Origin: Dictyostelium discoideum
Lineage: Eukaryota
Assembly: GCA_000004695.1 (NCBI GenBank)
Contig: CM000151.3
Coordinates: 7,744,001-7,808,000 of the forward strand
DNA: 64,000 bases
Reading direction: 5' to 3'
Positions 8,454 to 58,965 of this stretch are shown piece by piece. The notes below the pieces were generated by a model that was not told where the DNA came from, did not search any database, and saw only the letters and a list, made by a program, of their open reading frames with translations. How positions within the stretch are numbered: the stretch's first letter is position 1; every line of letters starts with the position of its first letter. Both the position numbers and the translations under genes were made by a program.

Positions 8454-8470
<17 letters not shown>
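8262..8470 (+). repeat. Copy B of the ~200-bp duplicated segment (see 6150..6360).
   Basis: Same ordered blocks as copy A (...gattaaggaaatat...aaataggttatcatttaaatactaaaactcccaacctaatcctcaagtg..actcactc, T-run, attattatttttagattttttttt). It lies immediately 5' of the ORF starting at 8504, as copy A lies 5' of the gene at 6722. Confidence 0.5.
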
Positions 8471-8503
<33 letters not shown>

Positions 8504-8506
<3 letters not shown>

Positions 8507-10040: not shown

Positions 10041-10078
<38 letters not shown>

Positions 10079-10672: not shown

Positions 10673-10831
10673 ATAAAGAAATATTTTAAATAATTGTTTT
10701 TTTTTTTATAATTTTTATAATTTTTTTATATATATTTTTTTTTTTTTTATTTTATTATTTTATTATTTATTTATTTATTTATTATTACCATTTATAATTA
10801 TTATTTAATTATTTAATTATTTAATTGTTTT

Positions 10832-30135: not shown

Positions 30136-32793
30136 TTATTTTTTTAACATTAAAATTGATTTTAGTGTTATATTTTGTAAAAAAGCAGTTTTTGAAGATG
30201 AAAAGTTTAATTTCTTTGATTTAGTTAAAATGTTGTTAAATGAAGTGGTGGAGGTGGTAAAAGATGAACCATTAATAGATTTGAGAGGTTTAGTAGTATC
30301 ATCAAATAATGAGACTTTAGATTCATTTTCCGAAATTAAATTAATATCATTATCTTTTTGACTAATAGCAGCTTTTGCGATTTTATATTCATTAATGACT
30401 GATCTAATATTATCTTGAGAGAATGGTGATTTGAATTTTGATTTTGGAAGATAATTAACGATAATTTCTCTTTCTTTTAATCTTGAAATATTTAATTCTT
30501 GATAATAACCATCCAATATATCCTTTACATTATAGAGTAAATCTGCTTGATAAGGTGAGAATCTAATTAAATCATAAGCAACACCATATGGTACTTTACC
30601 AAAACCACAACGAATTGTATTTTGATAACGTTGTGAGAAATGAGTTACGATCGTTTTTCTAGCTCTCATATTGTAGGATACATTTAAAGTTTCATCTAAA
30701 GTTGAATGACGTTTTAGGTAAGCTTGGTCTTTTTCATCGTTGGCAAAGGTTGATTCGTGAATTAAGAGATCAGAATCTGCACCAGCTTTCTCTAAAAGTT
30801 GGCAAGGTCTAGTATCACCAGAGAAAGTTAATCTAAAGCCATCATTGAAATCAATGACACAACCATAGGCATTTGGTGCATGTATTACTGGTACATTTGT
30901 GAATGAACTAATTCCAAGGGTTTCACAAACTTGTACCATATTTTGACCACCCGAACCAATGCTTTGAGTTACAAATGAAAGAGATGGATCAAAACTTTCA
31001 CGATATTGAGTGATCCAATTGATGTAGGATGAATGTGAAACCACAAGCATTGGTGAATGTTTACTTCTCTCTTCTTCACTTAATTTGCTCAATGCTTCAT
31101 CCCTTGCTTTGACAATTGATATTAAACCCAAATGATGATCAGCATGTAAATGTGATATCCAAATCATTTTGGTGTCAATTAAAATCTTTTGCAAATCGAC
31201 TCTACCAAAGTATCTCTCCATTTGAATTAGAGTTGATTCACCACAATCCAATATGAAATGATTATTCTCACTACTACTAATGAGAATACCTGTAACATTT
31301 CTATGTTCTGAAGGAACGGATGAGGCAGTACCAAGGAATAAAGTTTTTGGATATTTACTAGCTGGTTTATTCTTTACCAATGATTCCAAATGTCTATCGA
31401 GATCCAACATTGTTTTAGTTTGTTTTTCACCCTCACCTTTCAAGAAATAATCATCATGTTGAAGTTGTAATTCATCTTGGTGACTTATAATATCTTGAGC
31501 CAATATTGGTGCACCACGGAATTGTGTTGGTGTCATTATGACTCTAAATGAATTTCTAGCTGGAATGATTGAATTGAAAATGGTTGATTTCTTTATATTC
31601 TCTAAGGAATTGATTGAAGTTGGCTCCCATTTTGGGGAATCGGTTTTATGGATTGATAATGAGGGTATCAAAATCTTTAATCTACTTCTAAAGAGGTCAC
31701 AAAGTTTAAGGACATCTTGAATTTCTGTGAATTCTTTATGTAACAATATATGTTTAGTTGAACCATACATAACACTACCATCCTCTTCAGTGATTGATTT
31801 CTCCTCATCATTAATATCTTTAAGTTTTCCATAGAATTTGGTGTAGTTATTTTTGGTGGATACATGACTAATCGATTCAATGAATTCCAAATATTTTGGA
31901 TTCTCCATTATATGTGGTGCAGTCTTATGATAGATGGCAGTCAATGGTTTTGTACCATCTTTAATTGAATCCCAAGCTGGATTATTAAATAAATCTTGGA
32001 AATACTCCTCTGATGGACAATTAATATATGCAAATGATGTACCTGGTGATGGTTTGGTAAGTAGTTCCTCTGGATATACCATTCTTGGATTTTCACGATC
32101 TTCATTCATAACTGGTTTTCTCTGTGCGACCAATTGTTGAATCTTTGATTGTTTGGTAATTTTTAAATCTCTTGCTTTATTACTATCGAATCTACCCATC
32201 ATTTTTTTAGAATGGAAAATGTAACATATCTTTTCATCTGTTGGTTCACTAACTATACTTGATTCTTCTTCTTGTTGTTGTTGTTGTTGTTGTTGTTGCT
32301 TTCGTTTTTGGTGTTGTCTTTGTGGTTTATGTGATTGTTGTAATTGTTTTTGTAATTGTTGTCGTTTTCTATGTTCTGGTGTTAAGAATGGTATTGCTAT
32401 AACTTTGAATACTCCATCCTCAATCATATAATTTTCACTATCTGAAAACTCTATAATCTCAAGGTTTTTAATATATTGAAAACATCTTGATATTTTAAAT
32501 AGTTTTTTAATTCCAGGTGGTCCATATATTTGAGTGTTGGTTGGAAATGTTGTAAATGATAAACCTATACCAAAAATACCACCAATATCTTTCCAATCAA
32601 GTGATGTTAATAAAATTTTACGTGTTTTATTAAATGATAAACCATCTTTACCAAGTAATGATCTTAATGTTGATTCTGATGGATCAATTAAATATCTATC
32701 ACCAATTTCTGAAAATACATATGTACATGATAAATTTGAACCATTAAATATAGTTTCAACAAATGAAACACCTAATGCATAATTCCCTCCCAT
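30136..32793 (-). CDS. tRNase Z, long form (ELAC2-type zinc phosphodiesterase), single 885-aa ORF.
   Basis: N-terminal pseudo-MBL half and C-terminal metallo-beta-lactamase half. ..LFLGTASSVPSEHRNVTGILISSSENNHFILDCGESTLIQM.. is the tRNase Z motif I region. MIWISHLHADHHLGLISI is the HxHxDH motif. There is also a poly-Q linker. Confidence 0.8.
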   Translation of the reverse strand: MGGNYALGVSFVETIFNGSNLSCTYVFSEIGDRYLIDPSESTLRSLLGKDGLSFNKTRKILLTSLDWKDIGGIFGIGLSFTTFPTNTQIYGPPGIKKLFKISRCFQYIKNLEIIEFSDSENYMIEDGVFKVIAIPFLTPEHRKRQQLQKQLQQSHKPQRQHQKRKQQQQQQQQQEEESSIVSEPTDEKICYIFHSKKMMGRFDSNKARDLKITKQSKIQQLVAQRKPVMNEDRENPRMVYPEELLTKPSPGTSFAYINCPSEEYFQDLFNNPAWDSIKDGTKPLTAIYHKTAPHIMENPKYLEFIESISHVSTKNNYTKFYGKLKDINDEEKSITEEDGSVMYGSTKHILLHKEFTEIQDVLKLCDLFRSRLKILIPSLSIHKTDSPKWEPTSINSLENIKKSTIFNSIIPARNSFRVIMTPTQFRGAPILAQDIISHQDELQLQHDDYFLKGEGEKQTKTMLDLDRHLESLVKNKPASKYPKTLFLGTASSVPSEHRNVTGILISSSENNHFILDCGESTLIQMERYFGRVDLQKILIDTKMIWISHLHADHHLGLISIVKARDEALSKLSEEERSKHSPMLVVSHSSYINWITQYRESFDPSLSFVTQSIGSGGQNMVQVCETLGISSFTNVPVIHAPNAYGCVIDFNDGFRLTFSGDTRPCQLLEKAGADSDLLIHESTFANDEKDQAYLKRHSTLDETLNVSYNMRARKTIVTHFSQRYQNTIRCGFGKVPYGVAYDLIRFSPYQADLLYNVKDILDGYYQELNISRLKEREIIVNYLPKSKFKSPFSQDNIRSVINEYKIAKAAISQKDNDINLISENESKVSLFDDTTKPLKSINGSSFTTSTTSFNNILTKSKKLNFSSSKTAFLQNITLKSILMLKK

Positions 32794-39024: not shown

Positions 39025-40465
39025 ATGATAGATTATAAAATTAATGAAATTTTAGTTAAACAATTAAATGATGACTATAATTGTTCAATTTGTGTAGATC
39101 CAGTATTAAATAGTTTACCATTAGAACAACATCAAGCACTTTCTTGTAAAAATGGTCATTTATTATGTCAAGCTTGTTGGGGTAAACAATTAGCATTAAG
39201 AAAAGAATGTTGCATTTGTAAAATAAAAGTTGAAAGTATTAGCGAACTTTGTAGAAATATGTATGTATATAAAAAGTTATAATTTCATTGTTTTTTTTTT
39301 TTTTTTTTTTTTTTTTTCCTTTATTAATTATTATTTTTTAAAAAAAAGATTTTTAGAAAAAGGATTTAGAAATAAAAAAGTTCATTGTCCAAATGGATTT
39401 GAAAATTTTAAAGTTGATGAAAAGTTAATAAAAGATGAAAGTGATGGATGTAAATCAGTGATAACTATAGATCAATTAGAATCTCATCTTAGGGAATGCG
39501 AATTTGTATTTATAGAATGTCCAAATGATCCAATTAGATGTAAAGATAAATTTAGAAAGAATCAAACCGATAAACATATGAACAAATGTCAATATGTTAC
39601 AATCAATTGCGAACATTGTAAAGAACCAGTGATAAAGAATGATATGCCAACACATATCGAGAATGATTGTTCCATCATCTCATTGGAATGCGAATTTTGT
39701 AAAGATAAATTTGGTAGACGTTCATTAGAGAACCATATAGCTAATGAATGTCCAAACGTAGTTATCGATTGTCCTCATAAAGAGGGTGGTTGTACTGCTA
39801 GAATCAAGAGATGCTATCTTTCACAACATCTCACCGAAGAAGATAACCATATCAGATATATGCAAAAAATCATTGAAAAACATAGAATTCAAGTAGAGGA
39901 ATCAGATCGTATCATTAAGAAACTTCGAGTCGACTATAAAGAATTGGAAAAACGTGTAGAGATTACCTCTCGTTACAAAGGAAATTGGACCATTGAAAAT
40001 TGGTCTCAAAAACTCACTCACTATCCAAATAATGAACGCTTAAAATCCCCTTACTTTTGTATTGGTTCAAAGAGTTTTTATGTTGGTTTATATCCAAATG
40101 GTTTCAATCAAACAAATGCTGGTTTCATGAGTATCTTTTTACATCTCTATGAAAAACCTTCAACTTCAACCACTGTCGTTAGATTTAGTTTTGAATTATT
40201 ACATTCAGATCCAACAAAATCTTTAAAATTTGGTAATTATATTATTATTATTATTATTATTTTGTTTTTAAATACAATTTATTTATTTTACTTACAAAAT
40301 TTTATTTATATAGAAAAATCAAATAAATATACTGAAAATAAAGGTAGTGGATTTAGTCAATTTATAGATATAAAAATGATTAATAACTTTATTATTGATG
40401 GAAAACTCACAATTAATATTGATGTTGAAGTTATACCACCAAGTAGTTCATTGGTTACAAAATAA
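39025..40465 (+). CDS. TRAF-like protein (RING finger + TRAF-type zinc fingers + C-terminal MATH domain), 3 exons join(39025..39260,39349..40232,40314..40465).
   Basis: RING: CSICVDPVLNSLPLEQHQALSCKNGHLLCQACWGKQLALRKECCIC. TRAF-type Zn fingers: HCPNGFENFKVDEKL..CEFVFIECPN..CQYVTINCEHCKE..CSIISLECEFCKDKF..HIANECPNVVIDCPHKEGGC. The MATH-like region GNWTIENWSQ..SPYFCIGSKSFYVGLYPNG...MSIFLHLYE is split by intron 2. Donors GTATGT 39261 and GTAATT 40233; acceptors 39348 and TATAG 40313. Confidence 0.75.
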
Positions 40466-40935
40466 AAAATATCTGAAAAAAAAAAAAAATAAAAAATAAA
40501 ATTTGTTTTTTTTTTTTTTTTAAATGTTAAATTTCAATAATACCAACAAAACTCAAAGAGAAATAATTAATTTGGATATGGAAATAAGTAATACCCTTAA
40601 CTGTAATAATTATTTTCAAATCCAGTTTTTTTTTTTTTTCAACTCAAAAAATAATTTATTTTACAAACCTAAATTGCCAATTTTCAGTTTTTTTTTTATT
40701 ATTATTATTATATTAAATTAAAAAATTAATAAAATTAAATATATTAAAGTGTAATTTTGTTAAATTCTTGGTAAATTTTATTTATTTCTTTTTTTTCATT
40801 TTTTATATTAATAATCAATTATTTTTATTTTTTTTATTTTTTTTTTTATTTTTTTATTTTTTTTTTTTTTTGTGAAGTTTCAAATTTTTTTTTTTTTTTT
40901 ATTTTTTATATGTAAAAAAAAAAAAAAAGAAAATA

Positions 40936-42053
40936 ATGGATAATAATAATTCAAATAATATTAAATTAAAGAATAATTTTGAAAAAAGGTTTCAAGAGAT
41001 TGAAAATGAATTAAGAGATAGTCATATTGGATTAGATGAAAACTTTTATACATCAATAAATGATAATATTGGTATTAGTAAATTAATTAGATTATCAAAA
41101 TCAATATATATAGCGAAAGATGATGATAATGATGAAAACATTGATAAAGAGAAAGAGACTCAACAACATCAAATATTTACAACACAAGAATATGAAAATG
41201 GTATTGAAATTCATGATATAAATAATAGATTAGTATTCTTTTGTTCAGATTATTTATGGAATTGTGAAAATCATATAAAATCATTATTAAAGATTTATTC
41301 AATTAATAACTGTATAATTTATTGTGGTCTATCTGAACTTGCACATATTAGTCATCCAAATTCTTCAAAATCAAAATCAAAATCAATTAATAATTTACCA
41401 AACTTTCAAAATTTTAAAAATAAATTCATTGAAAAAATGAAATTATCTTTTAAAAAAGAAAATCAAGATATCAATCATGATGGTCATGATGATGATGATG
41501 ATGATGAATATTATCAAGATGAATTACCAGATATATCATGTACAATTAAATATTTCCCTTTATGTTATAGTCAACCATTTAAAAATTTCTTTACTATTCC
41601 AATTCAAAAATCATTATTTCCTTCAAATTATTTTATTAATGATTTAAAGTAAGTTTTTTATTATTGTTTTATTTTAATATTTATTTCTTATTTTATAAAT
41701 TACTAATATAAAAAAAAAGATTAAATGAATATAAATTAAATAAAATGCCAGAAGAAATTCAAGATAATGTTCATAAAAGTATTTATTCATTTTTATCATT
41801 TTTAAATGAAATGAAATTGGGGTCAGTGTCAGGAGAAGATTTAAATATCTATCCAATTGGACCATTTTCAAGTTATTTAGCACATGAAATTCAAACCACC
41901 TTAGCCACTATAACAAATCAACAACAAGATGATTATCATCCAATATCTTTATTATTAATTGATAGAACTTTAGATTTAGTTGGTCCATCATTACATTCTG
42001 AAAATTCAATGGATAGAATTTATTTTTCAACTACAACACCATTAAATAAATCA

Positions 42054-42103
<50 letters not shown>

Positions 42104-43721
42104 TCAACTTAATAATTATCAACCAATAATTAATATTGAAACATTTTTTGATAATGATAATAAAATAGTTAGTGAATCAAGTATTAATGAATGTCCAAGG
42201 ATTATATCAACAATTAATGGTAGTGATATTGAACGTCATCAAAATCTTGATAATACCAACAACAACAATACCAGTGGTGAAAGTAGTGTTAGATTATGGG
42301 ATAGTTTAATTACAAAGAGTTTAAAAGATGTTATAATGATATTAAAGAGAAGATTAGTTGAAATCATTTCAAAAGAGAATATAAATGTTGATATTTCAAG
42401 TATTGCTGGTCCAACTAATATTCAATCTTTAATTGCTTTAGTAAATGTTTTAAAAGATGGTGATAATAATGGCGATTATGATGATAGTGATGATAATGAT
42501 GATGATGGTAATGATGATGGTGATGATAATGGTGATAATCATAATCATATGTTAATGTATAGGTATAATGATATAATAGAAGCTGTTGCTGCAGTTGAAC
42601 AAACTATTAATTTATCATCACAGTTTCATTGGGATCAACTATTATCAATTGAAAAAATTCTATTATTAAGCTCAGGTTATGAATTAGAAGAGGAGGATGA
42701 AGATGATGAAGATGATGAAGATGAAGAAAATGAAGATAATAGTGAACCATCAATACTATCACAAATTTGTGATATAATTGAAACACCAATTAGTGGTGGT
42801 GGAGGTGATGATAAATATTATTCAATTCAAGAGATTTTAATCCTATGTGTTATGGCATATTCAATCAAAGGTTTGACCTCAAAATTATCTCAAAAACATT
42901 TAAATTCATTATCATCTTTAAATATTAGCAATAGTGTTAGTAATAATAATAGTAGTAATAGTAATCTCAGTGGTAGTGGTAGTGTCAATGACAATAATTC
43001 TGTATCAACACTCGAAAAGATACCAATATTCTCAGATTCAGATGAACAAAGATTAATCAATTGTTTATCAGATAAAATTTTAAAGGAAAATATTTATAAA
43101 GATTTAAAATTTTTAAATAGAGAATCAAATAATAATAATAATAACAATGATAACGAAGAAAAAGAAGAAGAAGAAGAAGAAGAAGAAGAAGAAGAAGATG
43201 ATGAAAATATTATTGACAAGAATGAATTAAATGAAATTTTAAAGAAAAAAGTATTAAGTAAACTTAAATCAATTGGAATTATTAGACAAAAATATTTAAA
43301 TGAACATAAATCATTAATAAGTGGTGGTGGTAGTTCAATGATGGGTGCAACTTATTCAAGTTTATTAAGTCAATTGGTGAAATCATTATTTGAGAATAGT
43401 GTTTCAACGGGTGGTAAAGATATTAAAGATTTTGAAAAGTTTAATTCATCCTCTTTGGTTGGTTATCTATTAGGTAAAACAAATTGGATGGGTAGATCAA
43501 AGAAAAGAGAGAAACCATTGGATAATAGAAAGGTTTTAATATACGTTTTAGGGGGTATCACTTTCACTGAACTCAAGGAGTTAACTGATCTCTTTGAAAA
43601 AACTCTAAAATCATCCCAATATAAAGAATTTTCAAATCATCAATTCTTAATTGGTTCAAATCAAATTTTAACACCTTTAAAATTATTTAATCATTTATTT
43701 ATAAATGAAAATAAAAAATAA
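40936..43721 (+). CDS. Sec1/Munc18 (SM)-family protein, divergent and expanded by low-complexity inserts (~905 aa), 2 exons join(40936..41648,41720..43721).
   Basis: Donor GTAAGT at 41649; acceptor A(9)G at 41719 (phase 2). SM-family hallmarks: HPISLLLIDRTLDLVGPSLH (compare LLILDRSxDxxSPLLH). The C-terminus is KVLIYVLGGITFTELKELTDLFEKT...QFLIGSNQILTPLKLFNHLF (compare (I/V)IVFV(I/V)GG(V/I)TYSE......(I/V)I(I/L)GS(T/S)xILTP). There are acidic, Asn and Glu-rich inserts. Confidence 0.55.
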
Positions 43722-43827
43722 AAAAATTTTAAAAAAATAAAAAAAGTGAAATTAAAAATAAAAAAAGTCATTAAAATGAAAGTATGTATGTATGTGAACT
43801 TTTATTTGAAATTAAAATGTTTTTTTT

Positions 43828-43869
<42 letters not shown>

Positions 43870-44091
43870 TTTCTTTTTAATTTTTTTTTTTTTTAATTTT
43901 TTATATTTTTCCAAAGAGTAAATTAATTTTGTGTGTGGTGTGCCTTTGATTTGTATTTGTAATAAAAAAAATAATAATAATAATAATAATAATAATTTAA
44001 AAAATAAAAATAAAAATAAAAATCTAAAAATTAAATAATTAGAAATAATAAAAAAAAAATAATAATAAAAAAATATATATAAAAAAACAGA

Positions 44092-44245
44092 ATGATTAGT
44101 GCATTATTCTTAATGAATGGAAAAGGAGAGGTGTTAATATCACGTATCTATAGAGATGATATTAGGTATGTAATTTTTTTTTTTTTTTTTTTTATATTTT
44201 TTTTTATTTTAATTTCATTATTGTTTAATTAAATTATTAATAATA

Positions 44246-44302
<57 letters not shown>

Positions 44303-45756
44303 AAATTATGGTTTTGTAGCCGTGGTGTTGCAAATGCATTCAGATTAGAAGTTATTGGATCTCAAGAAACAAGATCACCAGTAAAATTAATTGGATCAAC
44401 TTCATTTATGTATATTAAAGTTGGTAATATTTATATTGTTGGTGTATCAAGACAAAATGTTAATGCATGTATGGTATTCGAAGTATTACACCAATTGGTT
44501 GACATTTTTAAATCATATTTCGATAATTTAGATGAAGATTCAATTAGAAATAATTTTGTTTTAGTTTATGAGTTATTAGATGGTAAATATATTTTTTTTA
44601 TTTTATTTTTTTTTAAAATTATTTATTTACTAATCTTTTTATTTATTTAAAAAATAATAGAAATTTTAGATTTTGGTTACCCACAAAATTGTTCAACAGA
44701 TGTATTAAAACTTTATATTACTCAAGGTCAAGGAAAATTAAAATCACTTGATAAAGTATGTATAAAACTAATGGAAAAGAAAAAAAAAAAAAAAACTTTA
44801 TTTTTTTATTTGATTTATTAATTAATTAAAAATAAATAAATATAAAATTTTTTTTTTAAAAAAAAAAGTTAAAACAAGATAAAATTTCAAAGATTACAAT
44901 TCAAGCAACAGGTACAACACCATGGAGAACACCAGATATTAAATATAAGAGAAATGAACTTTATATTGATGTTGTGGAGAGTGTAAATTTGTTAATGTCA
45001 GCAGAAGGTAATATATTAAGAGCAGATGTATCAGGACAGGTTATGATGAAATGTTTCCTTTCTGGTATGCCAGAATGTAAATTTGGTATGAATGATAAGG
45101 TTATTATGGATAGAGAGAAATCAACAAATGGTGGTAGTGCCGCTAGAAGTGGAGCACGTCGTGCAAATGGTATTGAAATCGATGATATTACATTCCATCA
45201 ATGTGTACGTCTTGGTAAGTTTGATAGTGATCGTACAGTAAGTTTCATTCCACCAGATGGTGAATTCGAATTGATGCGTTATCGTACCACTGAACATATC
45301 AATCTACCATTCAAAGTTATACCAATCGTTAGAGAGATGGGTAGAACTCGTTTAGAGTGCTCCGTCACTGTTAAATCAAATTTTAGTAGTAAAATGTTTG
45401 GTGCAAATGTTAAAGTAATCATTCCAACACCTAAAAATACCGCTGTCTGTAAGATTGTCGTTGCAGCTGGTAAGGCTAAATATATGCCAGAACAAGATGC
45501 TATCATTTGGAGAATTAGAAGATTCCCTGGTGATACTGAATTCACTCTCAGAGCTGAAGTTGAACTTATGGCATCCGTTAATCTCGATAAAAAAGCTTGG
45601 TCACGTCCACCAATCTCTATGGAATTCCAAGTTACTATGTTCACTGCCTCTGGTTTCTCTGTTCGTTTCCTTAAAGTCGTTGAAAAAAGTAATTATACAC
45701 CAATTAAATGGGTTAGATATTTAACAAAAGCTGGTACCTATCAAAATCGTATTTAA
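44092..45756 (+). CDS. apm1: AP-1 clathrin adaptor complex mu subunit, 4 exons join(44092..44165,44320..44582,44661..44755,44869..45756).
   Basis: MISALFLMNGKGEVLISRIYRDDI / SRGVANAFRLEVIGSQETRSPVKLIGSTSFMYIKVGNIYIVGVSRQNVNACMVFEVLHQLVDIF.. / ILDFGYPQNCSTDVLKLYITQGQ.. / ..YKRNELYIDVVESVNLLMS..MPECKFGMNDKVIM..IDDITFHQCVRLGKFDSDRTVSFIPPDGEFELMRYRTTEHINLPFKVIPIVREMGRTRLE..IKWVRYLTKAGTYQNRI*. This is near-identical in pattern to metazoan AP1M1, including GMNDK and FIPPDGEFELMRYR. Donors GTATGT 44166, GTAAAT 44583 and GTATGT 44756; acceptors TTTTGTAG 44319, AATAATAG 44660 and A(n)G 44868. Confidence 0.88.
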
Positions 45757-46151: not shown

Positions 46152-46605
46152 ATGAAATTTATTTTATTTTTTATAATTATATTTTATTTAATTTCATATA
46201 TTAATTGTATAAAATTGGAATTAACAGATATTACTTATAATGATTTAGGAGTATCAACACCTTATCAACACAATAGGAATCCAGATGATCTTACAGGAGT
46301 AGCCTGCTCTTTTTATTTAATGTTTTATGCGGTGGATATTGAAGATACAATTAATTCGGGTGAAGCAATTAATTTTACTTCTCAAAATTATCCTGGACCA
46401 TTTTTACATCAATTATCAAATAAAACAGCCAAAATCACTCAATATGATATTTCTATCCCAATAGGGTCAACCATTTTAGATGTTATAGCCCAATATGAAA
46501 ATGCACAGACTTCAATTAATGTAACATTAAATTGTCATGGTAAATATATATTTTCTAACAAATAAATTAATTAATTAATTAATTAATTTATACAAAATAT
46601 GTACT

Positions 46606-46641
<36 letters not shown>

Positions 46642-47011
46642 CATCATAACTATAGAAAATGATTTCAGTAAAATTACAGTCAAAGTTTTTAAAAACTCAA
46701 TTGATTTTAGACCACTTTTTCCTTACCCAGCATTAGTTAAATTACAAGGTCCATTTTATAATAATATTAGGTCAATATCTGCTGTGGGTATTCCTTATGG
46801 GATTAGCTCATTTCTTGTTTTTACAACCCAACCCTATCTTATAGATAGCTTCAATATTACTATTGAATTTATTAATTCAAATGCACTAAATATAACTATC
46901 CCACAATTTTTTGAATGTAAGAATTTATTTTTAATATTTTTTTATTTATTTAATTTGGTTAAATTATTAAAATAATTTAACAATTATTAATTACTAAATA
47001 TTATTTTTTTG

Positions 47012-47065
<54 letters not shown>

Positions 47066-50000
47066 TAATATAAATAATGATATAATTTTAAATAGATTTC
47101 CAAATCAAACACAATTTTATGAAATGGGAAGATATTATTCTCCTTTGTATACTATATCTTCATCTGGTGATTTACCAATTTATAGAACAAATTCTGTGAA
47201 TTCTGTAAATCCAAAAGCAATATATGGTTCACCTAATAATTACACATTTATAGGTTCAGTAACCGAACCAGATTCAAATAAAAAATTTTTTTTACAAACA
47301 TTAAATGGAAATAAATTTGAAAATATTACAACCAATCTTTTTACAACAATAAATGGTATGTATATATGAATTATTATTATTATTATTTTATAAAAAAAAA
47401 AAAAAAAAAAAAACTGTTTTTAATAATTAATTTTTTATTTTAAAAAAAAGTTCTCCCATTTTATAGAATACCATTACTTGCTGATTTTACCTATAGTACC
47501 TCAACAGATTTATCAACAATGTTCACAGCATACTATGATTCATCCTCAAAATATGATTTTTCAACAATAAAATATACTCTTAAAGAATACAATTTAAAAT
47601 TAGCATGGCCATTTGGATTTGAAAATGGAAATAATAATGCCCATAAGTTAATTGTATCTTTTCCATTTTCCAATTATTCATCACAATATTATGATACATT
47701 TAGTGTTTCTGTTATTAGTGGTTCTGTTTTGGGAGAGTTAATCCCTGTTAATTTGGGTAGGTATTTTATTATATTTTAATTTTTATTCTTATTTTAATTT
47801 AAAATTATCACTTCTACTAACTTCTTTTTTAAAAAAAAATTATTAAAGTAACAACAAACCCTCTAAAAATTTTATCTTTTGAAATAATTTATTTATATGA
47901 TTTTAATGTTTTGGTAAAGGTAAAAATTAATTCAAATGTTTCATATAAATATGAAGAGTTTTCTTATATAGATATTTTGGGTGAAAAGTTTGGATATGAT
48001 AAATGTGTTTCAAATGAAGATCAAAATCCATCATTTGAAATTCTTGTTAATTCATGGAATTTATTTGAAAAAATTGAAATTAGTGATTTATCTGGTTATA
48101 TAATAACATATGATATGGGCTCATTTGTTGATATAAATCCTCCAAAAAGATTAATGCATCCATTAGTTATGGCTGGTATGTATAAACAAAAAAAAATTGT
48201 ATAAATAAATTAATTATTTTTACTAATTGTAATATTTTTTTTACAATTAATAGAAAATGATATTTTTTCAATTGAAAATGTTACATTTTTATATAATAAT
48301 TTAAATGTTATAGATAAAAATGTTCCAAACGTTATGTCATTTAATTATAGTGATGTAACCAATACTAGAAAACCATTTGGTCTTTACATTTTAGATGAAA
48401 CATCAGGATTTTTAAATAAATATGATGAAAAATCTGTATTTTTCTCAAAATGGAACCCTATAAAAAAAATGTATGAAATTGAATTTTTTGTTGGAGCAAA
48501 TTCAAGGGAAGGTGTTTTACCTTGGATGTTAATGGGTGGTAATAATAATGCAGGTCTTATAAATTCATTTTTACCACATTCTTGTCAACTTTTTATAAAT
48601 CAATCGAGTAAGTTTAAAATTATATTATTCAATAATTAAATAATTATTTTTATTTTTATTGACATTTATTTATTTTTTTTTTTTATTTATGTAAAAAAAA
48701 AAAAGAATTTGATGCATATGGTCCAATTTTTACAAATATTACTAAAACTAGTAGTTATGGATTAAAACCAGAATTATTAGTTGATTGGGAATTCCATATT
48801 AGAGATGAAGTTAACGGATTTGAAAGAGGTTATATTGAAATTAGAGGCGATTTTGATAGTTCCTTATATAGATTTACATTTACAAATGCAAATTTAAGAC
48901 AAGGTGATATCTATAATGGAGTATACATTTATACTCAAATTATTTCATTGAATAATGTATGTAATATTCAAAATTATACTATTACAAATGTTGAATTATA
49001 TGATCGATTTGGTAATTCTGCAAAGTTTAGTACTATTTCAGAAAGAGTTGATGTTGACCCAACAAGAAATCCTTTTATTTTATTTGGCGATGATCCAAAT
49101 ATAAACAAATTCCAAACTGATTGCAATGATACAGTAGATGACTATCCTCCAAAATTATTATCATTTTCATTTGAAAATAGGATGGAAACAACTCAATCAA
49201 TATTATTTTCATTTTCAGCTCAATGTATTGATAGTGGTATTAAATTCGCACAATACCCAATAGTTTATGCAACTTCAAGCCAATTCAAAACAGTTCAATG
49301 TATTTCTTATATAGATTTTTACAATACCACATATGCCTTGTATTCTTGTCATATGGATATTCCATTTGGTTTCGGATATAAAAATGAAATTTTATTCAGT
49401 GTTTATGGATTTATAAATAATGGCGGATACTTTAGTGGTTTCTCAACAGAATATTTGAAAACTAATTCTTTTCCATATTCAATTTCAAATATTCCGCTTT
49501 ATAGAAAGTTATCAGTTGAAAAAACAAGTTCAATTACAAATAAAGGTGGTGATTTATGGATTATTGGTAGAGAATTTGATATTAACAGTTGGGTATTTGT
49601 ACTATATACTGATGGTAAACCCAACGATTCTTTATATCCAAAAGAACTTCATTCAACTGCAATTCTTGTTAGTGGAATTAAACCTACTATACACCCTTTT
49701 ACAATTCAAGTAAGACATATTACAAATGGTACATTAGCTTCAAACAATTATAGAGTTGACCCTCTCATTTTTATATATCCTGAAGATTCATCTTCAACTT
49801 CTTCAACTTCTTCATCCTCAACCTCTTCATCTTCTAGCTCATCATCATCATCATCATCATCATTGTCATCATCATCATCATCAAATGAAACTACGCCTAG
49901 CCCAACATCATTACCAACAAATGCTCCTCAAAAATGCAAAGGAAATCCAATTTGTGGTGGTTTAAATGGATATTGTTCATCTAGTGGTTGCGTTTGTTAT

Positions 50001-50975
50001 TCTCCATGGGTTGGCGAGGATTGTTTATCAAAAGTAATCATTGTACCACAACCATCAACAAATACCTCGCAACCATCAACTGAAATTCCAATTTTTGATG
50101 ATAATAATTCAGAATCAATTATGTTTAAATCATTGATTTCAATTGTTTCATTAAGAGAATTAGATTTCAATGATAAACAAGTAAACCAATATAAATTTGA
50201 TAAATGGACTTATTCAAAATTAAATGAAACAACAAATCAATATTTCACAAATATTACAATTCAACCATCAGCTTCAAATAATTTTAAAAGTAGTATAACT
50301 AATATCACTGCAACATTACAATGGTTTAATAAAGAAACAAATATAACATTTGCAAATGAACAATTACAAATGAAACCATCTAGTATTAAATATACAATTG
50401 AAATTTCACAATATAAATTCTCAAATGCATTAAATAAATTACAACTTGTAATGTCAGCATCATTAACATCTTTTAAAGGTGATGATAATAACATTTGTTC
50501 ATTCAATAAATTTGGTGAAACTACAAATGGTGATGATTCTGAATATATTAAAATCCAAGTTGATGATCATTCATTATATGGTAGATTTATTAAAAGAGCT
50601 TTCATTGATTCAAAAATTAGATCAATTTCAAATGTTCAATTGGATTCATCATTTGAAAATCCTTCCTCATCTTCATCCACATCCTCTCAACTATTCATTG
50701 GTATTGAAATTCCAATCTATAATGATAATGTTATTATAGATCCTGACTTTTCTGTACTAATAGACAGTAAAGCTGCCTCAAATAGTGATGATAATTCAAT
50801 ATGTTCATCAAGTATATCAAAACTATCAAAAACTCAACTTGCTGGTATTATTATTGGTTCAACCCTATTTGGTTTAATAGTGATAGTTGCCATAACCTAC
50901 TATGTCATAAATAAGAGAAAAAATACTAAAATGATTAACAGGATCCAAAATAAATTAAAAAAAGTTAACAAATAA
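46152..50975 (+). CDS. Large (~1400 aa) type I membrane glycoprotein: signal peptide, long extracellular region, Ser-rich stalk, EGF-like module, single TM, short basic tail. 7 exons join(46152..46539,46656..46916,47065..47355,47451..47756,47849..48175,48254..48607,48706..50975).
   Basis: Signal peptide MKFILFFIIIFYLISYINC. Donors GTAAAT 46540, GTAAGA 46917, GTATGT 47356, GTAGGT 47757, GTATGT 48176 and GTAAGT 48608. Acceptors TATAG 46655, A(n)G 47064, A(n)G 47450, TTAAAG 47848, AATAG 48253 and A(n)G 48705. All six introns are phase 1 and the join keeps one frame open throughout. The last exon has a poly-Ser tract (49790-49880), the EGF-like KCKGNPICGGLNGYCSSSGCVCYSPWVGEDC, and the TM LAGIIIGSTLFGLIVIVAITYYVINKRKN. 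Confidence 0.6.
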
Positions 50976-51599: not shown

Positions 51600-52248
51600 A
51601 TGGCAGAGTACGTGTTGATCACATAAATTTTTTTTTTATTTGTATCTGTGTTTTTTTTTTTTTTAAAGATAAAAAAAAAAAAGTAAAATAAAATAAAGTT
51701 AAATTCCCTTTAGAAATAAATAAATAAAAAAATAAAACAAAGAAAAAAAAATATATATAAAAAAAAAAATAATAATAATAAAAACAAGAATTATATTCTT
51801 CAATTTTCAAAAACAGATTTAAAAAAAATAATTTAGTCTATGATTTAGAGAGAATAGTCAAATATAGGATTTAGGTACACATAAACAACAACAAAAAAAA
51901 AAAAAATCGAAATAAAAAAAAACAATATATAATAAATTTTTATTGGGAATCTAAACTTTTTATATAATATTTTATATTTATTCTTATTTTTTTTTTTTTA
52001 AAAAAAAAAAGAAATAAAAAACACATGATTGTTATTTTTTTAAAAAAAATGAATAAACACTAATATTTATATATTTTTTTTTTAATTACAGTAAAAAAAA
52101 GAAGGGATCCAAAAAAGGTGGTAAAAAGTAAGTTGAAATAAAGTTTAGAATAGTATTATCATAGAAATTTTTAGCAACTTGATTATCTACATTTTTTTTC
52201 GGTTTTTTTCAAAAAAAAAAAAAGTCGGAAAAAAAAAGAGTGAATTTT

Positions 52249-52283
<35 letters not shown>

Positions 52284-53187
52284 GTGAGATAGAGTTGCGA
52301 TGATGAAATTGATAATACTATTTTTTTTTTAAAAAAAAAAGATAACTTGGAAAAAAGAATATTAATTTAGTTTAACTTTTTTTTTTTTTTTAAAAAAAAA
52401 TTAATTTAGAGTCGACCCATTCACCCGTAAGGAATGGTATGTTGTAAGAGCACCAACTCAATTCTTCAAATCACCAGCTGATAACAAAGTCGGTTTCACT
52501 CCAGTTAACAGAACCCAAGGTACCAAACTTGCTTCTGATGGTTTAAAGGGTCGTGTCTACGAAGTTTCACTCGCTGATATGAAAGACGATGAATCCCAAG
52601 TCTTCAGAAAGATCAAATTAAGAGCTGAAGAAGTTGAAGGTAGAAACGTTTTAACCAACTTTTACGGTATGGATTTAACCTCAGACAAACTCCGTTCATT
52701 AATCCACAAATGGTCCACCTTGATCGAATGTTTTGTTGATGTTAAGACCACTGATGGTTATTTCCTCCGTGTCTTTGCCATCTGTTTCACCAAAAAGGGT
52801 GAATCCCAAAAGAAAAAGACCTCATACGCCAAGACCTCCCGTGTTAAGGCTATCCGTAAGAAGATGGTTGACATTTTAACCGAAACCGTCTCATCCAACG
52901 ACCTCAAAACCGTTGTTGACTATTTAATTGGTGTCTCATTAAACGGTGTTACCACTAACGCCTCTGGTTTTGCCCCAACCCTCGCTGAAAAAATCAGAAT
53001 CGAAGGTTCATCAATCTTCCCAATCCACAACGTCTTCATCAGAAAGGTTAAAGTCCTCAAGACTCCAAAAGTTGATGCTGCTAAATTATCTGAACTCTAT
53101 GCTTCATCTGCCACCTCAACCATCGCCCCAACTGAAGAAGTAGGTACCGCTGTTGAAAGAACTGAAGAAACCACCACCACCGCTTAA
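51600..53187 (+). CDS. rps3a: 40S ribosomal protein S3a (eS1), 3 exons join(51600..51607,52092..52127,52410..53187). The first 8-nt micro-exon is tentative.
   Basis: Exon 3 is [140 protein letters not shown].., i.e. unmistakably RPS3A, with high-expression codon bias (GC-rich third positions). Exon 2 is T AAA AAA AAG AAG GGA TCC AAA AAA GGT GGT AAA AA ([12 protein letters not shown]) between acceptor TTACAG at 52091 and donor GTAAGT at 52128. Proposed exon 1 is ATGGCAGA + GTACGT at 51608. It sits in a GC/pyrimidine-rich island (tactctcactcggccttttc, TOP-like 5' UTR) and gives MAD-KKKK.., consistent with MAVGKNKR.. of other S3a. Confidence 0.8.
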
Positions 53188-53354
53188 AAAAAAATAAAAT
53201 AATTCCTTATTTTTAAAAATATATAAAAAAAAAACCCTTCTTTTTCTTTTTATTGTTTTATTTTCAAAAAAAAAAAAAAAAAAAAAAAAAGGAATGAATA
53301 ATAAAATTTTCTTTTTTAATTTTTATTTGTTTATATATTTTTTATTATTTTTTT

Positions 53355-53662
53355 TTAAAATAAAACTTGTGAATCTGGTATAGTTAAATTATTTTTATCA
53401 TTAATTGAAATAGTGTTTTTACCAAATAGAAATTCAGAGGATTTTACAGTATTCTTTTTACCTTCTTCAAATAATTTAGTAATACCAATCCAACCATCTT
53501 TACAATTTACCCACATTATATTATTATAAGGTTTTGATTTATCAGTTTCTAAAAAGAAAGAACCATGTTTTAAAGTTGTTGAATTTCTATTTTCATAATT
53601 TTTGATATCTATTAATAATTGTTTATACATTTCATTTGTGGTGGTTGTGGTTGTGGTTGTGG

Positions 53663-53715
<53 letters not shown>

Positions 53716-54500
53716 GAATCTGATGGTGGTTGTAACATTTCTTTTACTTTAATTGTTTTTGCAGATTTTGATTTCTTATTGTAAATCATTGTATTTAAAC
53801 CAATGTTATCACTGAATGCTTTATAAAGAATCCAAATCTCATTGATGGTTTGTGTTGACCATTCTAATTTTGACATTTTTCTATTCACTTTTGGTGCTAA
53901 AGTTTTACCTTGTTCAGTTTGATTTTTAGCATTTTTGGAAGATTCTGGAAAATCTTGAATTGTTGACATTACACATTCACTTCCTAATTCAACCAAGTTT
54001 GTTAGTAATTGATTGTATAGGATTTTATCTTTATCATATGGTTCCAATTTAATTTGTTTTAAAATTTTACCACAGTCGAATCTTTCGTGATGTAATTCTA
54101 TCACCGAGATACCAACATTATCATCGTCGCTTAGAATTTGGTGGTAAATGGGTGCAGCACCACGATGTCTTGGTAATAATGATGGATGCATATTAATACC
54201 ACCATATTTAAATTTTGATAATACTGATTTCGGTATGAAATGTCCAAATGATACAACCACGGCCAAATCAAATAATTCATCATTACCTTGTTCACTTTCA
54301 CCAGTCGTTATCTTTGGTACTTGAAATCCTTTCATACCATTAATTGCATCAGGATATGTTATCTTTAAACCATTCTCAATTGCATATTCTTCAACTAATT
54401 CTTTTTTTTCGGATTTTGGACAAATAACTTGTAATTCTTTAACTAAATTATTTGTTTTTAATTCTAATTTTTTTGAAAAAAAAATTAATTAATAAACCAC

Positions 54501-54548
<48 letters not shown>

Positions 54549-54755
54549 CCAAAAATAAAAAGTGTTTAAAAAAAATACATACATACTTTGGTTTTCATGA
54601 AGAGATTTTAAAATTGGTAATGAAACATTATCAGTACCAAAAAATAAAATTCTATATGGAGGTGATTTAATTATTGAGGTGGAAAAATATCTAATGTTAT
54701 TAAATAGAATTGAGTTTTTATTTTTGTTGGTTAAAATAGAACGTGATAAAAACAT
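53355..54755 (-). CDS. Methionyl-tRNA formyltransferase, mitochondrial, 2 exons join(complement: 54755..54587, 54463..53355).
   Basis: Exon 1 is MFLSRSILTNKNKNSILFNNIRYFSTSIIKSPPYRILFFGTDNVSLPILKSLHENQ, a presequence plus the (I/V)LFFGTD formyltransferase start. Donor GTATGT (54586-54581); acceptor ATTAG (54465-54464), phase 1. Exon 2 has FDLAVVVSFGHFIPKSVLSKFKYGGINMHPSLLPRHRGAAPIYHQIL..GISVIELHHERFDCGKIL, the N(I/L)HPSLLP(R/K)YRGAAPI formyl-transferase signature. An in-frame poly-Thr insert (ACA/ACC)n lies at 53640-53720. Confidence 0.8.
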
Positions 54756-55231
54756 TCTTTAAATTCTAATATTTTTTTTTATTTAATAAATATGTTTTTA
54801 TGGTATTATTAAAAATTTAAAAAAAAAAAAAAATAAATGTTTTCGTAAAAAAAGCGAATATCAAAATTGATATTACGTTTTTGGCAAAAACTGGTCAAAA
54901 TGTGTTTTAATAAAAAAAAAAAAAAAAAAATCAATTTTTAATATTTTTTTTTTTTTTTTTTATTCTGAACACCAAACCCTTTTAAATTAAATTTTTCTAA
55001 ATTTCAATTAATATTTTTTATTTTTTTTATTTTTTTTATTTTTTTTTTTTTTTGCTACCCAACATAACTAATTTGTTTTATAGATTCAAAATTTTATTTA
55101 TTTGTTCATATAAATAAATAAATATATATAAAAAAAAAAAAAAGAATAAAAAAAAAAAAAAAAAAAAAATAATAAAATAATAAAAAATTAAATAAAGTAA
55201 TAATAGTAATAAAATAATATATATAATTAAA

Positions 55232-58200
55232 ATGGCAAAGGTAAAATTTTTAATTACTATTCTTTGTTTTTAAATTAATTTTTTTTAAATTAATTCCTGT
55301 CTTAATTTTTTTTTATTTTATTTTATTTTTTTTTTTATTTTTCAAATTAAGAAACATTCAAGAGAAGAAACAATAACATCACCAAGTCCAAGTGGAAATA
55401 CAACTACAACATCTACAACAAGTCCAACATCAACAACACCAACAAAAGAAAAAAGAACAAAAATTTCAAATGGAAATAATAAAGAAAAAGAAACCAATAG
55501 TAATAATAATATAAATACAAGTAATACAAATATTTTAAATGGTAGTGTTAATAGTTTAAATAATAGTAGTACAAATTTATTTACAACACATCAAAATAAT
55601 CCAGTAAAGAATTTAAAAGGATTTGATGATATTGGTGAAGGTATACTTAGATTCGAAGGATCAAAAGAAATTGATTTCATTGGATCAGTAAAGAGAGTTC
55701 ATTCAATGATGAAAGATTATTTAAAGAAAACTCCACAATATGATTACGAATTATTAAGTCAATTATTCAAATGTGATTTACAATTGAAATTAGAGAATCT
55801 TCAATTGTTTGGTGATATTTATGTTAGAAATTGTTTTAGTATCCTTTTATCAAATTATTTTAATCAAGCCAAAGATTTAGGTAAAGAGTTTAGACAAATT
55901 GGTGGTTTCGTTTTAGTGATTAATCCAATGGATATTGAAAGTCAACCAATGGTAACTGGTAGTATTTTAACTGCTCTTCATTTAAAAATGAAATGTATTA
56001 TTTATGTTGGTCCTGGTAATTTACCATTATCACAAATTACAAGAGTAAGAGTTATTATTATTTTTATTATTATTAATTATTAATTATTATTTTTTTTATT
56101 TTTATTACTAATTTAATTTTTTTTTTTTTTTTTAAAAAATAAAAGTTATATATGTGTCATGCTAGAGGTGCAAAAATTATATTTCATAAAGGTGATGTAT
56201 CATCATGTTATACAAGAGCATGGCAACATGCAAAAGATATGAGTATGGTATTTTTAGATTGTAAATTTATACCACATTTTAGTTTATTGGGTGCAGCAAC
56301 TATTGCACATGAAATGATGGAGGATAGTCCAGATAGGGAGACAATTATCATACCATTAAGATTATATTCACAGGGTTGGAGTTATGTCAGTGGTATTTCA
56401 ATTTTCTATAAGATTATGAAACCTGAAATCAAGATTATAGTAGTTCAAATGACTGATGATCTCTTTGGTAAAGATATTGAAGGTAAAGAATTTAATAGAC
56501 AATCATTATTCCCTGACCGTTTAGAGATTGGTTGGTTAGCATTAATTCATGATCAATCAGATCTTACCAATGTTTTCGACGCTTTCGATTCAAGAAATCA
56601 AGGTAAATTCTCTGATAAAGATTTAGAGGCATTATTGATAAGCATTGGTGGTGATCCAACTAGAAATAAATCAATGTGTCCAAAATCATCACTTTCTCAA
56701 ACTGAATTTGTTCATGAAGTAATCACAGAGATCACAAATGGTTTAGAGCAATTGGAGGAGAAATTTAGCTACTTTTTACCACAATTCAAATTGGATAACT
56801 TAATCAATCATAAAATCATCGATCAATTAGTAACAGCAACCGAGGATCAAGCTTCAATCGCTTTCATTAAATGTTTAGAGTATACCCATACTCTCACCAA
56901 TGGTAAGGGTTCAATTGCTTTGGGTGGTCTAATGAGTGGTAATATTCATTTAAGACCCGATGAAAAAGTATTGGTTATGTTATCAGGTGGTTATGTCGAT
57001 GTAATCGATTTTCAAACTATTTTAAACTATGGTTTAGATATCACTGGTCAAAGCTTTGAAATTGAATTGGATTTACCCGATAATACTACATCACTAAATA
57101 AAGTATTAAATGTTATTGGTGAAAATAAAGTATCAGTTATGGAGGTATTAATGGATCGTTCTTGTGAAACTTTAAAACAATATCATGTTAGAACTTCAAT
57201 TCAATGTCATTCAAGAAATTTTGAACAACAATTTAAAATCTTTGATGTTATTAAATCTTTAGGTTTTAAATATAGTTTAAGAAAATCTGCAATTCTAAAT
57301 AAAGAAGAATCTGGTTTCCTCTCACCACCAATGATTAAGCCTTCAACAAATTTATCAATTTCTCAATCAATTAATATTGGTAGTAGTGTAACGAGTTTAC
57401 CATCATTTCCAAATACTTTAAATTCAAGTAGTTCAAATGCATTTAATAGATTTGGTAATGGTAATGGTAGTTCATCAAATACAACATCACCATCACCACC
57501 ACCACAACTACCACCACAATTACAATATAAAATTTCACCAAAACCATATCATCAACAAAAAAGAAATATTGGTGATATAACAGTTCAATCAATTAGAGAA
57601 GCACATAATAGAATTAAACATATTATGACTCAACCACCCATTTATCATTCAACTACCTATTCAAAGATTTGTGGTTGCAAAGTTACATTAATGTTAGAGA
57701 ATACTCAAAAGACTGGTAGTTTTAAGATTAGAGGTTCATCGAATATGGTGTTAAGAGCATTGGAAGGTGCAATGGTAAACACTGATGAAAGACCAGTTGG
57801 TTTAGTTGCTGCCTCTGCAGGCAATCATGCTCAAGGTGTAGCTTTAATCTCTGCAAAAGTTGGTTTACCTTGTACAATCGTTTGTCCAGAGTATGCACCA
57901 GATTCAAAATTATCATCAACTCGTCAATATGGTGCCGAAGTCATTAAAAAGGGTAAAAGTCTTGAAGAGGCTGTCAAATTGGCCGATGAAATCTGTAAGG
58001 AAAGAAATTGGACATTGGTTAGACCTTACAATGATGTTGATGTAATCGAAGGTCAAGGTACAATGGGTTGTGATATCTATGATAAAGTACCAGATGTCGA
58101 TACTGTGGTTGTAAATGTTGGTGGTGGTGGTATGATCGCTGGTATCGCACTATTCTTGAAACGTATCAATCCAAACATTAGAATCATTGGTGTTCAATCA

Positions 58201-58965
58201 GCAAACGTTTCACCATTATCAGAATTTAAACAAACCAATCAATTCCGTTATATCGAACCAGCAGTTTTATCATTGGCCGATGGTACAAATGTAAAGATGC
58301 CAGGTGGTGTACACACTCAAGTACTTCATGATATGGTCGATGAGTATGTAACCGTTAGTGAAAATGAAATCGCTTCGACCATAGTTCATCTACTTTATAA
58401 TAGTCGTACAGTTTCAGAGGGTGCAGGTTGTTTAGGTTTGGCTGCATTAATGCATAAGAAAATTAAAGTTAGAAAGGATGAAAGGGTTTGTGTCATCATT
58501 TGTGGTGGTAATATCGATATGTCAACACTTCGTCAAGTCTATGAATATGGTTTACGTTCACTTGGTCGTTCTTTCACAATTCATTTAACAACTTGGGATT
58601 ATCCTGGGACCCTAAGTAAAATCATTGGTTTGGCTGCCCGTGCCGAATTAAAAGTTCGTGAAATTAGACATATCCGTGGTGGTGGTAATATCAATTGGAA
58701 TGAAGTTATCATTTCCCTCTCCTTCTATAGTAACTCTTTTAATCATCAAAACTTTTTCTTATCTCTATTGGCTCAAGAAGGTCTCTTCCCAAAGATTGTC
58801 GGTAGAAAATACATTAAAGATAATGAAATAGTCTATAAAATTTTCGATAAATCTGTTGATAAAAAGAATAAAGAATTAAAAGATACCTTTTCAGAAAGAC
58901 AACAACTATTTTTAGAACAATATGGAAAACAAGCCAATGTTTCTTTGGAAAGTAAAATGAATTAA
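55232..58965 (+). CDS. Tandem threonine-dehydratase-like protein (~1173 aa): Asn/Thr-rich N-terminus, a degenerate (lysine-less) PLP fold-II domain, then a complete threonine/serine dehydratase domain with C-terminal ACT-like regulatory region. 3 exons join(55232..55240,55352..56044,56146..58965).
   Basis: Exon 1 is ATGGCAAAG + GTAAAA (55241). Acceptors AATTAAG 55351 and A(4)G 56145; donor GTAAGA 56045. Domain 2 has ..IREAHNRIKHIMTQPPIYHSTTYSKICGCKVTLMLENTQKTGSFKIRGSSNMVLRAL..GLVAASAGNHAQGVAL..VNVGGGGMIAGIA..VSEGAGCLGLAAL..CGGNID.. plus a C-terminal SFTIHLTTWDYPGTLSKIIGLAARAELKVREIRHIRGGG.. (IlvA-type regulatory fold). Domain 1 is a parallel but degenerate copy: TPQYDYELLSQLFKCDLQLKLENLQLFGDIYVRNCFSILL. 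Here the position of the PLP-lysine (TGSFKIRG) is occupied by FGDIYVRN. Confidence 0.72.

Follow-up and report, generated by a model that had tools for sequence, protein, structure and literature searches.

A predicted seven-exon ComC-family gene of Dictyostelium discoideum with phase-1 introns at or beside its module borders

In animals, symmetric phase-1 exons that each carry one extracellular module are regarded as a hallmark of the assembly of adhesion proteins and receptors as multicellularity arose. In the sponge Amphimedon, the aggregation factor (AF) genes contain repeated domains that respect exon borders and are delimited by introns of the same phase (phase 1), an arrangement read as the outcome of exon duplication or shuffling (PMC5400394). 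The ComC family of the social amoebae is catalogued yet uncharacterised apart from comC. The latter encodes a protein having EGF domains, a signal peptide and a transmembrane (TM) segment, is developmentally essential, gives an aberrant-aggregation mutant and is conserved only in group 4 (PMC4931340, PMC2873529). The present analysis concerns a predicted gene, placed by its sequence in this dictyostelid family, that occupies positions 46152-50975 of the plus strand of a 64,000-nucleotide stretch of Dictyostelium discoideum DNA, hereafter the window (assembly GCA_000004695.1, contig CM000151.3, positions 7,744,001 to 7,808,000). Its six introns are all of phase 1 and sit at or beside module borders. 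This animal-like layout of the genes of the ComC family is an undescribed feature, the gene itself being an uncharacterised member of a catalogued family.

The locus consists of seven open stretches, in frames 0, 2, 0, 2, 1, 1 and 0. All GT..AG pairs that keep the frame were enumerated and the shortest intron was taken for each gap; every gap yielded one such intron, with a donor of the Dictyostelium type (Table 1). The seven exons joined in this way amount to 4197 nucleotides (nt) and encode 1398 amino acids (aa) with no internal stop, so that the locus is best taken as a single intact seven-exon gene. This mechanical rebuild reproduces the seven-exon model with one open frame of about 1400 aa that an earlier note on this DNA had drawn from the letters alone and, together with the threading of orthologues, confirms its statement that all six introns are of phase 1. 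The introns are GT..AG throughout and have an A+T content of 88-95%, and all the internal exons are symmetric (1-1). The frame of each exon closes within a few dozen bases past its donor, and therefore all six introns are needed. The sole intron with a short in-frame alternative is intron 3 (47360..47466, phase 2), and this alternative was rejected, as it would delete the LPFYRIP motif conserved in the orthologues. As a separate observation, intron 1 contains a run of about 30 T (46608-46639) and intron 2 one of about 60 A (47006-47064), the lengths of which vary among strains; long homopolymer runs of this kind are typical of Dictyostelium introns and a likely cause of assembly or alignment error.

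The annotated homologous proteins were threaded exactly onto their own genomic DNA, and in their comparison with the 1398-aa model none of the six junctions showed an indel. Five syntenic orthologues (P0001, P0002, P0009, P0004 and P0005, from two isolates labelled D. discoideum, one D. cf. discoideum, D. dimigraforme and D. firmibasis) have introns at the identical six positions and in phase 1 throughout, with the ATG of exon 1 at an identical position; the synteny, with AP-mu upstream and rps3a downstream, holds in four other genomes. In the four closest orthologues (P0001, P0002, P0009 and P0004) the exon lengths equal those of the window gene or differ by multiples of 3, the intron lengths being free to vary between 68 and 234 nt; also in the more distant D. 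firmibasis gene the exon-length differences are multiples of 3, except for exon 7, which is split by an extra C-terminal intron. Paralogues and distant homologues (two D. discoideum paralogues and one protein each from D. purpureum, Tieghemostelium lacteum and Polysphondylium violaceum) retain subsets of the positions, namely columns 220, 384, 546, 719, 910 and 1093 of alignment A4, and again all of them are in phase 1; the P. violaceum homologue has a single phase-1 intron and that of Tieghemostelium five, and the position of intron 1 (column 220) is common to P0001, P0004, P0005, P0006, P0016 and P0043. Paralogues sharing intron phases, which the earlier note had proposed to look for, do therefore exist, and they share positions as well. 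Given this recurrence of positions, in orthologues as well as paralogues throughout Dictyostelium, the six phase-1 introns are to be regarded, on this comparative evidence, as ancestral to the ComC family.

Additional introns are found in some homologues. Those of D. firmibasis and D. purpureum have an extra phase-1 intron in the same column, at the DPDFS motif that marks the end of the supersandwich (L004 7708-7777 and L006 5563-5634), and the T. lacteum homologue has one straight after the signal peptide (L005 3056-3123). These extra introns suggest that the ancestor carried more phase-1 introns than the window gene keeps.

The product of the gene is predicted to be a type I membrane glycoprotein with an EGF-like module. 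A hydropathy scan gave two peaks only, one near the N-terminus (aa 4-22) that resembles a signal peptide and one that marks the single TM helix (aa 1354-1377), after which comes NKRKN..., and 26 N-glycosylation sequons (N-x-S/T) are present, in agreement with the EGF/TM surface glycoprotein with signal peptide, TM helix and KRKN tail originally envisaged. From N- to C-terminus the order is signal peptide, six all-beta modules of about 100 aa, DUF7035, DUF7034, a DUF8390-like domain, a Ser/Thr-rich linker, the EGF-like module, the supersandwich, the TM helix and the tail. The identification of the beta domain at aa 904-1000 as a probable DUF8390 follows from the domain order in the orthologues, where DUF8390 is listed between DUF7034 and DUF7949. 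The poly-Ser stalk noticed at the outset corresponds to a Ser-rich stretch at aa 1003-1036. As to the EGF-like Cys knot, said to lie just before the membrane, the six-Cys motif does exist (aa 1053-1082) but its location was misjudged, since the TM helix lies about 270 residues further on, beyond the ComC supersandwich. Its sequence, CVCYSPWVGEDC, presumably matches the PROSITE EGF signatures; in Pfam it scores below the cut-offs for EGF_TEN (E 0.03) and EGF_Teneurin (E 0.9), and only the family-specific DUF7949 passes. The Pfam scan of the window protein gave no Ig, I-set or fn3 match and no IPT/TIG domain, so that it does not qualify as a Tgr protein of the TgrB1/TgrC1 type; the first 643 aa, which correspond exactly to exons 1-6, have no Pfam match, DUF7743 being undetected by Pfam in this copy.

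The earlier note had been unable to name a family. Four Pfam entries, ComC_SSD, DUF7035, DUF7034 and DUF7949, are matched above their curated cut-offs and identify the gene, as far as sequence can tell, as a member of the dictyostelid ComC family. A profile built on the N-terminal stretch (about 620 aa) and run against 1.84 billion representatives retrieved 87 proteins, with E<1e-10 for 60; the majority of the 87 are 1300-1450 aa long and align with this region end to end. A look at ten of them by name showed sources in Dictyostelium, Polysphondylium violaceum or Tieghemostelium lacteum without exception, and no labels other than "hypothetical" or "EGF-like domain-containing". The window protein shares with the other members the set of C-terminal domains, the size, the topology (signal peptide, ectodomain of about 1350 aa, one TM helix and a short tail), homology over the N-terminal 620 aa and the intron positions. 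It differs in its supersandwich, which scores 68 bits compared to 172 bits for that of D. purpureum P0043, presumably the comC orthologue; judging from this weaker score, the window gene is probably a paralogue of comC and not comC itself. Kibler et al. are said to have placed comC, in 2003, upstream of lagC/tgrC1.

Within the window, tblastn detected no second member of the family. The gene two positions upstream, considered as a paralogue in view of a 66% blastn match to the C-terminal region, was discarded, its open reading frames (ORFs; 40936-43721) encoding an unrelated Asn/Asp/Glu-rich protein. Elsewhere, some members (P0032, P0045, P0057, P0075 and P0008) contain a DUF7743-x-DUF7035-DUF7034 cassette twice or are joined to methyltransferase, macro or esterase domains, architectures that may be real or may represent merged gene models. 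Locus L011 of D. cf. discoideum (3157-11325) contains a split or fragmentary member, called as products of 395 and 371 aa; not far from it, on the other strand, is a full-length ComC-family gene, and a gene for a Dicty_CAD (cadA-like adhesion) protein lies between the two. The locus may be a local cluster of surface-protein genes with a decaying copy.

The relationship between exons and modules was analysed on an AlphaFold2 (AF2) model of the N-terminal 624 residues of the orthologue P0001. With an alignment of 7 sequences the predicted local distance difference test (pLDDT) was 40 and the model was discarded; with a 50-sequence family alignment the pLDDT rose to 85, with a predicted template modelling score (pTM) of 0.78. 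The latter model is all-beta, with 7-10 strands per exon segment (8 in the module of exon 1), and each of the five internal intron positions lies in a loop that separates one group of strands from the next. Foldseek aligned 450-690 columns of it to ectodomains with six or seven immunoglobulin (Ig) domains, such as contactin-2 Ig1-6, CEA, VEGFR-1 D1-6 and PirB, with E values of about 1e-8. Furthermore, introns 4, 5 and 6 match domain borders curated independently in Pfam: in the paralogues, DUF7743 extends from A4 column 719/724 to 907/912, with introns at 719 and 910, and in seven of the seven members tested DUF7035 begins at column 1094, with intron 6 at column 1093. The proposal that the symmetric phase-1 exons correspond to protein modules is thereby upheld, both by the DUF7743 and DUF7035 borders and by the inter-strand position of the introns in the model, and each of the six N-terminal exons appears, on this modelled structure, to encode one Ig-like domain. 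Comparison of profiles built from 49 sequences relates the exon-5 module to DUF7035 (hhalign probability 97%, E 6.7e-11) and gives a weaker hint, at 26%, for DUF7035 and DUF7034; shallow profiles of 8 sequences gave no similarity between modules, so that the relation between exon 5 and DUF7035 emerges only at the greater depth.

The resemblance to the animal Ig superfamily (contactins, class III receptor tyrosine kinases of the VEGFR/KIT/CSF-1R type, ICAMs, CEA, LILR/PirB) consists in some six tandem Ig-like sandwiches in a single-pass protein and, in both cases, in symmetric phase-1 exons with one domain each (on the animal side, see PMC3488318). On the other hand, sequence identity is 7-14% and the window protein has no kinase domain or cytoplasmic domain of the type bearing an immunoreceptor tyrosine-based inhibitory motif (ITIM); the likeness is most likely convergent and confined to fold and gene architecture. 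With the sponge AF genes the ComC family shares the property of being a lineage-specific set of surface or extracellular recognition genes whose domains are bounded by phase-1 introns, whereas the sponge domains (Calx-beta, Wreath, VWA) are unrelated and belong to secreted proteoglycan components, unlike a type I membrane protein. Taken singly, the gene adds one more ordinary, uncharacterised member to a family that has been catalogued before; the wider interest lies in the family-wide conservation of one Ig-like domain per 1-1 exon in the social amoebae, which became multicellular independently. If confirmed, this would provide a tractable non-animal case in which to ask whether such a gene architecture is a general route to modular surface receptors, and would make the uncharacterised ComC paralogues, some of them fast-evolving, candidates for a role in cell-cell recognition.

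The explanation that best accommodates these data, and that we hold to be probable, is that of an intact ComC-family gene with six Ig-like modules, one per exon, ancestral phase-1 introns, an origin by duplication and, by analogy, a role in recognition. In the ancestral ComC-type gene each Ig-like sandwich would have been carried by its own symmetric phase-1 exon, and the ectodomain would have been built through duplication of such 1-1 exons; homology can be detected at least between exon 5 and DUF7035. Loss of introns would then have affected the 3' 2.27 kb, those in the 5' 46% of the coding sequence having survived; two homologues still carry a phase-1 intron where the supersandwich ends. 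The resulting long, heavily glycosylated rod of Ig-like domains would, by analogy, project from the cell surface and could serve, as reported for the genetically studied member comC, in recognition between cells or between cell and substrate, or in signalling, during social development; with a short, non-catalytic tail, signalling would go through partner proteins. On this analogy the protein may be a receptor for recognition or adhesion, with partners to relay its signal; the adhesion implied in the earlier remark that the architecture recalls cell-adhesion and recognition proteins finds no support beyond it.

Several points weigh against this explanation. The six junctions are predicted from comparative and frame evidence, and the exact 1398-aa sequence is absent from the public protein collection; in the source genome the gene may perhaps be unannotated or modelled differently. 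The structural model is that of a 93%-identical orthologue and not of the window protein, and the equation of one exon with one domain is derived from secondary structure, Pfam borders and the behaviour of the fold search. Modules 1-4 and 6 have no mutual similarity detectable by deep profile-profile comparison, and for these a shared origin through duplication is therefore conjectural. Finally, the function of this paralogue is argued wholly by analogy.

An origin by classical exon shuffling, in which intronic recombination brought in the phase-1 modules from other genes or swapped them with such genes, is possible but rather unlikely. Five 1-1 exons with their edges at domain borders are what such a process would leave, a phase-1 bias is the signature of mobile domains in animals (PMC3488318), and P0032 and P0045 contain the DUF7743-x-DUF7035-DUF7034 cassette twice. 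However, the profile search found the N-terminal modules solely within the ComC family, the apparent fusions with methyltransferase, macro and esterase domains may result from the merging of gene models, the short DUF7035+DUF7034 protein P0010 looks like a fragment and internal duplication accounts for the data equally well. The idea that P0010 is a mobile cassette was considered and set aside: it has the look of a fragment, its neighbour being a 395-aa gene called separately, and a full-length member lies close by on the other strand. Of the exon-shuffled modules initially postulated there remain the symmetric exons at domain borders; movement between unrelated genes does not emerge from the data, which display intragenic duplication (exon 5 and DUF7035) and a family-wide structure.

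The rate of evolution of the gene bears on its possible role. The gene (46152-50975) was compared with its flanks (39025-45756 and 51600-58965) using loci L001, L010 and L012, and in three genome pairs its nucleotide sequence is 2-3 times more diverged than the flanking genes: 94.5% identity vs 97.3-98.3% between the window and the ACTFIR isolate, 97.6% vs 98.9-99.9% between the ACTFIR and ACTFIW isolates, and 92.9% vs 96.0-98.0% between the window and D. cf. discoideum. Both synonymous (dS) and nonsynonymous (dN) divergence are raised, and the overall dN/dS of 0.28-0.39 indicates purifying selection on the gene. Conservation is highest in the supersandwich and EGF modules (supersandwich identity among strains 95-100%) and lowest in the N-terminal ones. 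The fastest-evolving module is that of exon 5, with 66-78% aa identity among close strains vs 83-89% for the whole protein; its dN/dS is 1.13 with respect to P0002, the D. cf. discoideum allele, vs 0.05-0.58 elsewhere in the gene, and its excess of nonsynonymous over synonymous changes relative to the rest of the gene is significant by Fisher's test (P = 0.004). Two observations may be recorded here. The segment aa 904-1000 (49488-49778) shows 13.8 nonsynonymous and 1.2 synonymous changes with respect to the ACTFIR allele (dN/dS 3.4, from small numbers), is identical in ACTFIR and ACTFIW, and has a dN/dS of 0.32 with respect to D. dimigraforme. Moreover, at synonymous sites the source genome differs by about 6% from the isolates labelled D. 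discoideum.

Such fast evolution is compatible with a recognition role, as read from these alignments, and falls far short of proving it. A more specific proposal, compatible with the origin by duplication preferred here, is that the protein is a polymorphic self/non-self or kin-recognition receptor whose variable Ig-like modules, especially that of exon 5, are under diversifying or balancing selection, the symmetric exons permitting exchange of single exons between alleles or paralogues. The divergence of the gene above that of its flanks, the rate and P value of exon 5 and the conservation of the membrane-proximal supersandwich agree with this proposal, to which the overall dN/dS of about 0.3 is opposed, as is the consideration that the compared genomes may be cryptic species and not alleles of one population. 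The allorecognition genes tgrB1 and tgrC1 also speak against it, their divergence being larger than the modest one of the window gene. On balance we consider it improbable. We give similarly little credence to its extension to the whole family, according to which ComC proteins would be a dictyostelid-specific analogue of the Ig superfamily, with phase-1 Ig-like exons that were multiplied and are perhaps still exchanged, and this member a fast-evolving receptor in which exon 5 (DUF7743-type) sets the specificity for the partner; if true, a second multicellular lineage would have independently invented the protein and gene architecture that animals use in cell recognition.

That the all-phase-1 pattern should be due to chance or to a bias of gene predictors is very unlikely, although the orthologue models are indeed computational annotations. 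A general excess of phase 0 introns has been documented (PMC3488318). At the local background of about 0.3 per intron, the chance of six phase-1 introns out of six is about 7e-4. This background comes from a local control, in which the neighbours at the orthologous locus were rebuilt by a constraint solver from nothing but gene span and product length: unique models were obtained for six of seven neighbouring genes, with ten introns whose phases 0, 1 and 2 are in the ratio 3:3:4, whereas for the orthologue of the window gene the solver returned a single model in which every intron is of phase 1. A predictor bias is thus contradicted by neighbours from the same annotation pipeline that show mixed phases, and by the fact that the phases are dictated by the seven frames and the only available consensus donors. 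Across ten homologues, 52 of 53 introns are in phase 1 despite the different annotation projects that produced the D. purpureum, T. lacteum, D. firmibasis and P. violaceum models, the lone exception being a 45-nt intron within a signal peptide.

The least likely alternative, to which we assign hardly any probability, is that 46152-48607 and 48706-50975 are two independent genes, or that the model is an artefact of chained open frames: nothing was found in favour of it; exon 7 does by itself form a 770-codon open frame, but its first ATG, GTG or TTG comes only at 48948 and it lacks a signal peptide, proteins of about 1350-1450 aa unite the N- and C-terminal halves family-wide, the junctions are free of indels with respect to the orthologues, and intron 6 occupies the same column in P0001, P0004, P0005, P0016 and P0043, all of which sustains the single gene originally assumed.

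Table 1. Features of the predicted ComC-family gene and its product, in window coordinates
Feature	Position	Strand	Description
Exon 1	46152..46539	+	388 nt, aa 1-129 + 1 nt; start codon, signal-peptide-like segment, first beta-sandwich module
Signal-peptide-like segment	46152..46208	+	aa 1-19, within exon 1
Intron 1	46540..46655	+	116 nt, GTAAAT..AG, 91% A+T, phase 1
Exon 2	46656..46916	+	261 nt, 1-1 symmetric, module 2
Intron 2	46917..47064	+	148 nt, GTAAGA..AG, 95% A+T, phase 1, long poly-A run inside
Exon 3	47065..47355	+	291 nt, 1-1 symmetric, module 3
Intron 3	47356..47450	+	95 nt, GTATGT..AG, 94% A+T, phase 1
Exon 4	47451..47756	+	306 nt, 1-1 symmetric, module 4
Intron 4	47757..47848	+	92 nt, GTAGGT..AG, phase 1; N-terminal border of DUF7743-type domain
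Exon 5	47849..48175	+	327 nt, 1-1 symmetric, module 5 (aa 416-524); corresponds to Pfam DUF7743 in paralogues
Intron 5	48176..48253	+	78 nt, GTATGT..AG, phase 1
Exon 6	48254..48607	+	354 nt, 1-1 symmetric, module 6
Intron 6	48608..48705	+	98 nt, GTAAGT..AG, phase 1; directly precedes DUF7035
Exon 7	48706..50975	+	2270 nt including TAA stop; intron-less 3' half
DUF7035	48708..49127	+	aa 644-783, Pfam E 4e-34, 118 bits
DUF7034	49149..49487	+	aa 791-903, Pfam E 3.5e-26, 92 bits
Further beta domain, probably Pfam DUF8390	49488..49778	+	aa 904-1000; from the place of DUF8390 in orthologues
Ser/Thr/Pro-rich linker	49785..49925	+	aa 1003-1049; length differs among strains
EGF-like six-Cys module, Pfam DUF7949	49935..50036	+	aa 1053-1086, E 1.3e-13, 51 bits; Cys spacing 5-6-4-1-8
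ComC supersandwich domain (ComC_SSD, PF22933)	50127..50759	+	aa 1117-1327, Pfam E 8.8e-19, 68.5 bits (cut-off 24)
Transmembrane helix, single	50838..50909	+	aa 1354-1377, Kyte-Doolittle maximum 2.66
Cytoplasmic tail, short, basic	50910..50972	+	aa 1378-1398 (21 aa), NKRKNTKMINRIQNKLKKVNK

Two minor observations concern other parts of the window. The 885-aa product of an ORF on the minus strand (30136-32793) has its exact record only in GCA_054883475.1 (JBTAPE010000033.1). In the rps3a orthologue (window 51600-53187; L001 15367-16951) about 800 nt have to be spliced out, starting in phase 2 after the eighth coding base; this sequence, probably one intron, is several times longer than the other introns of the region.

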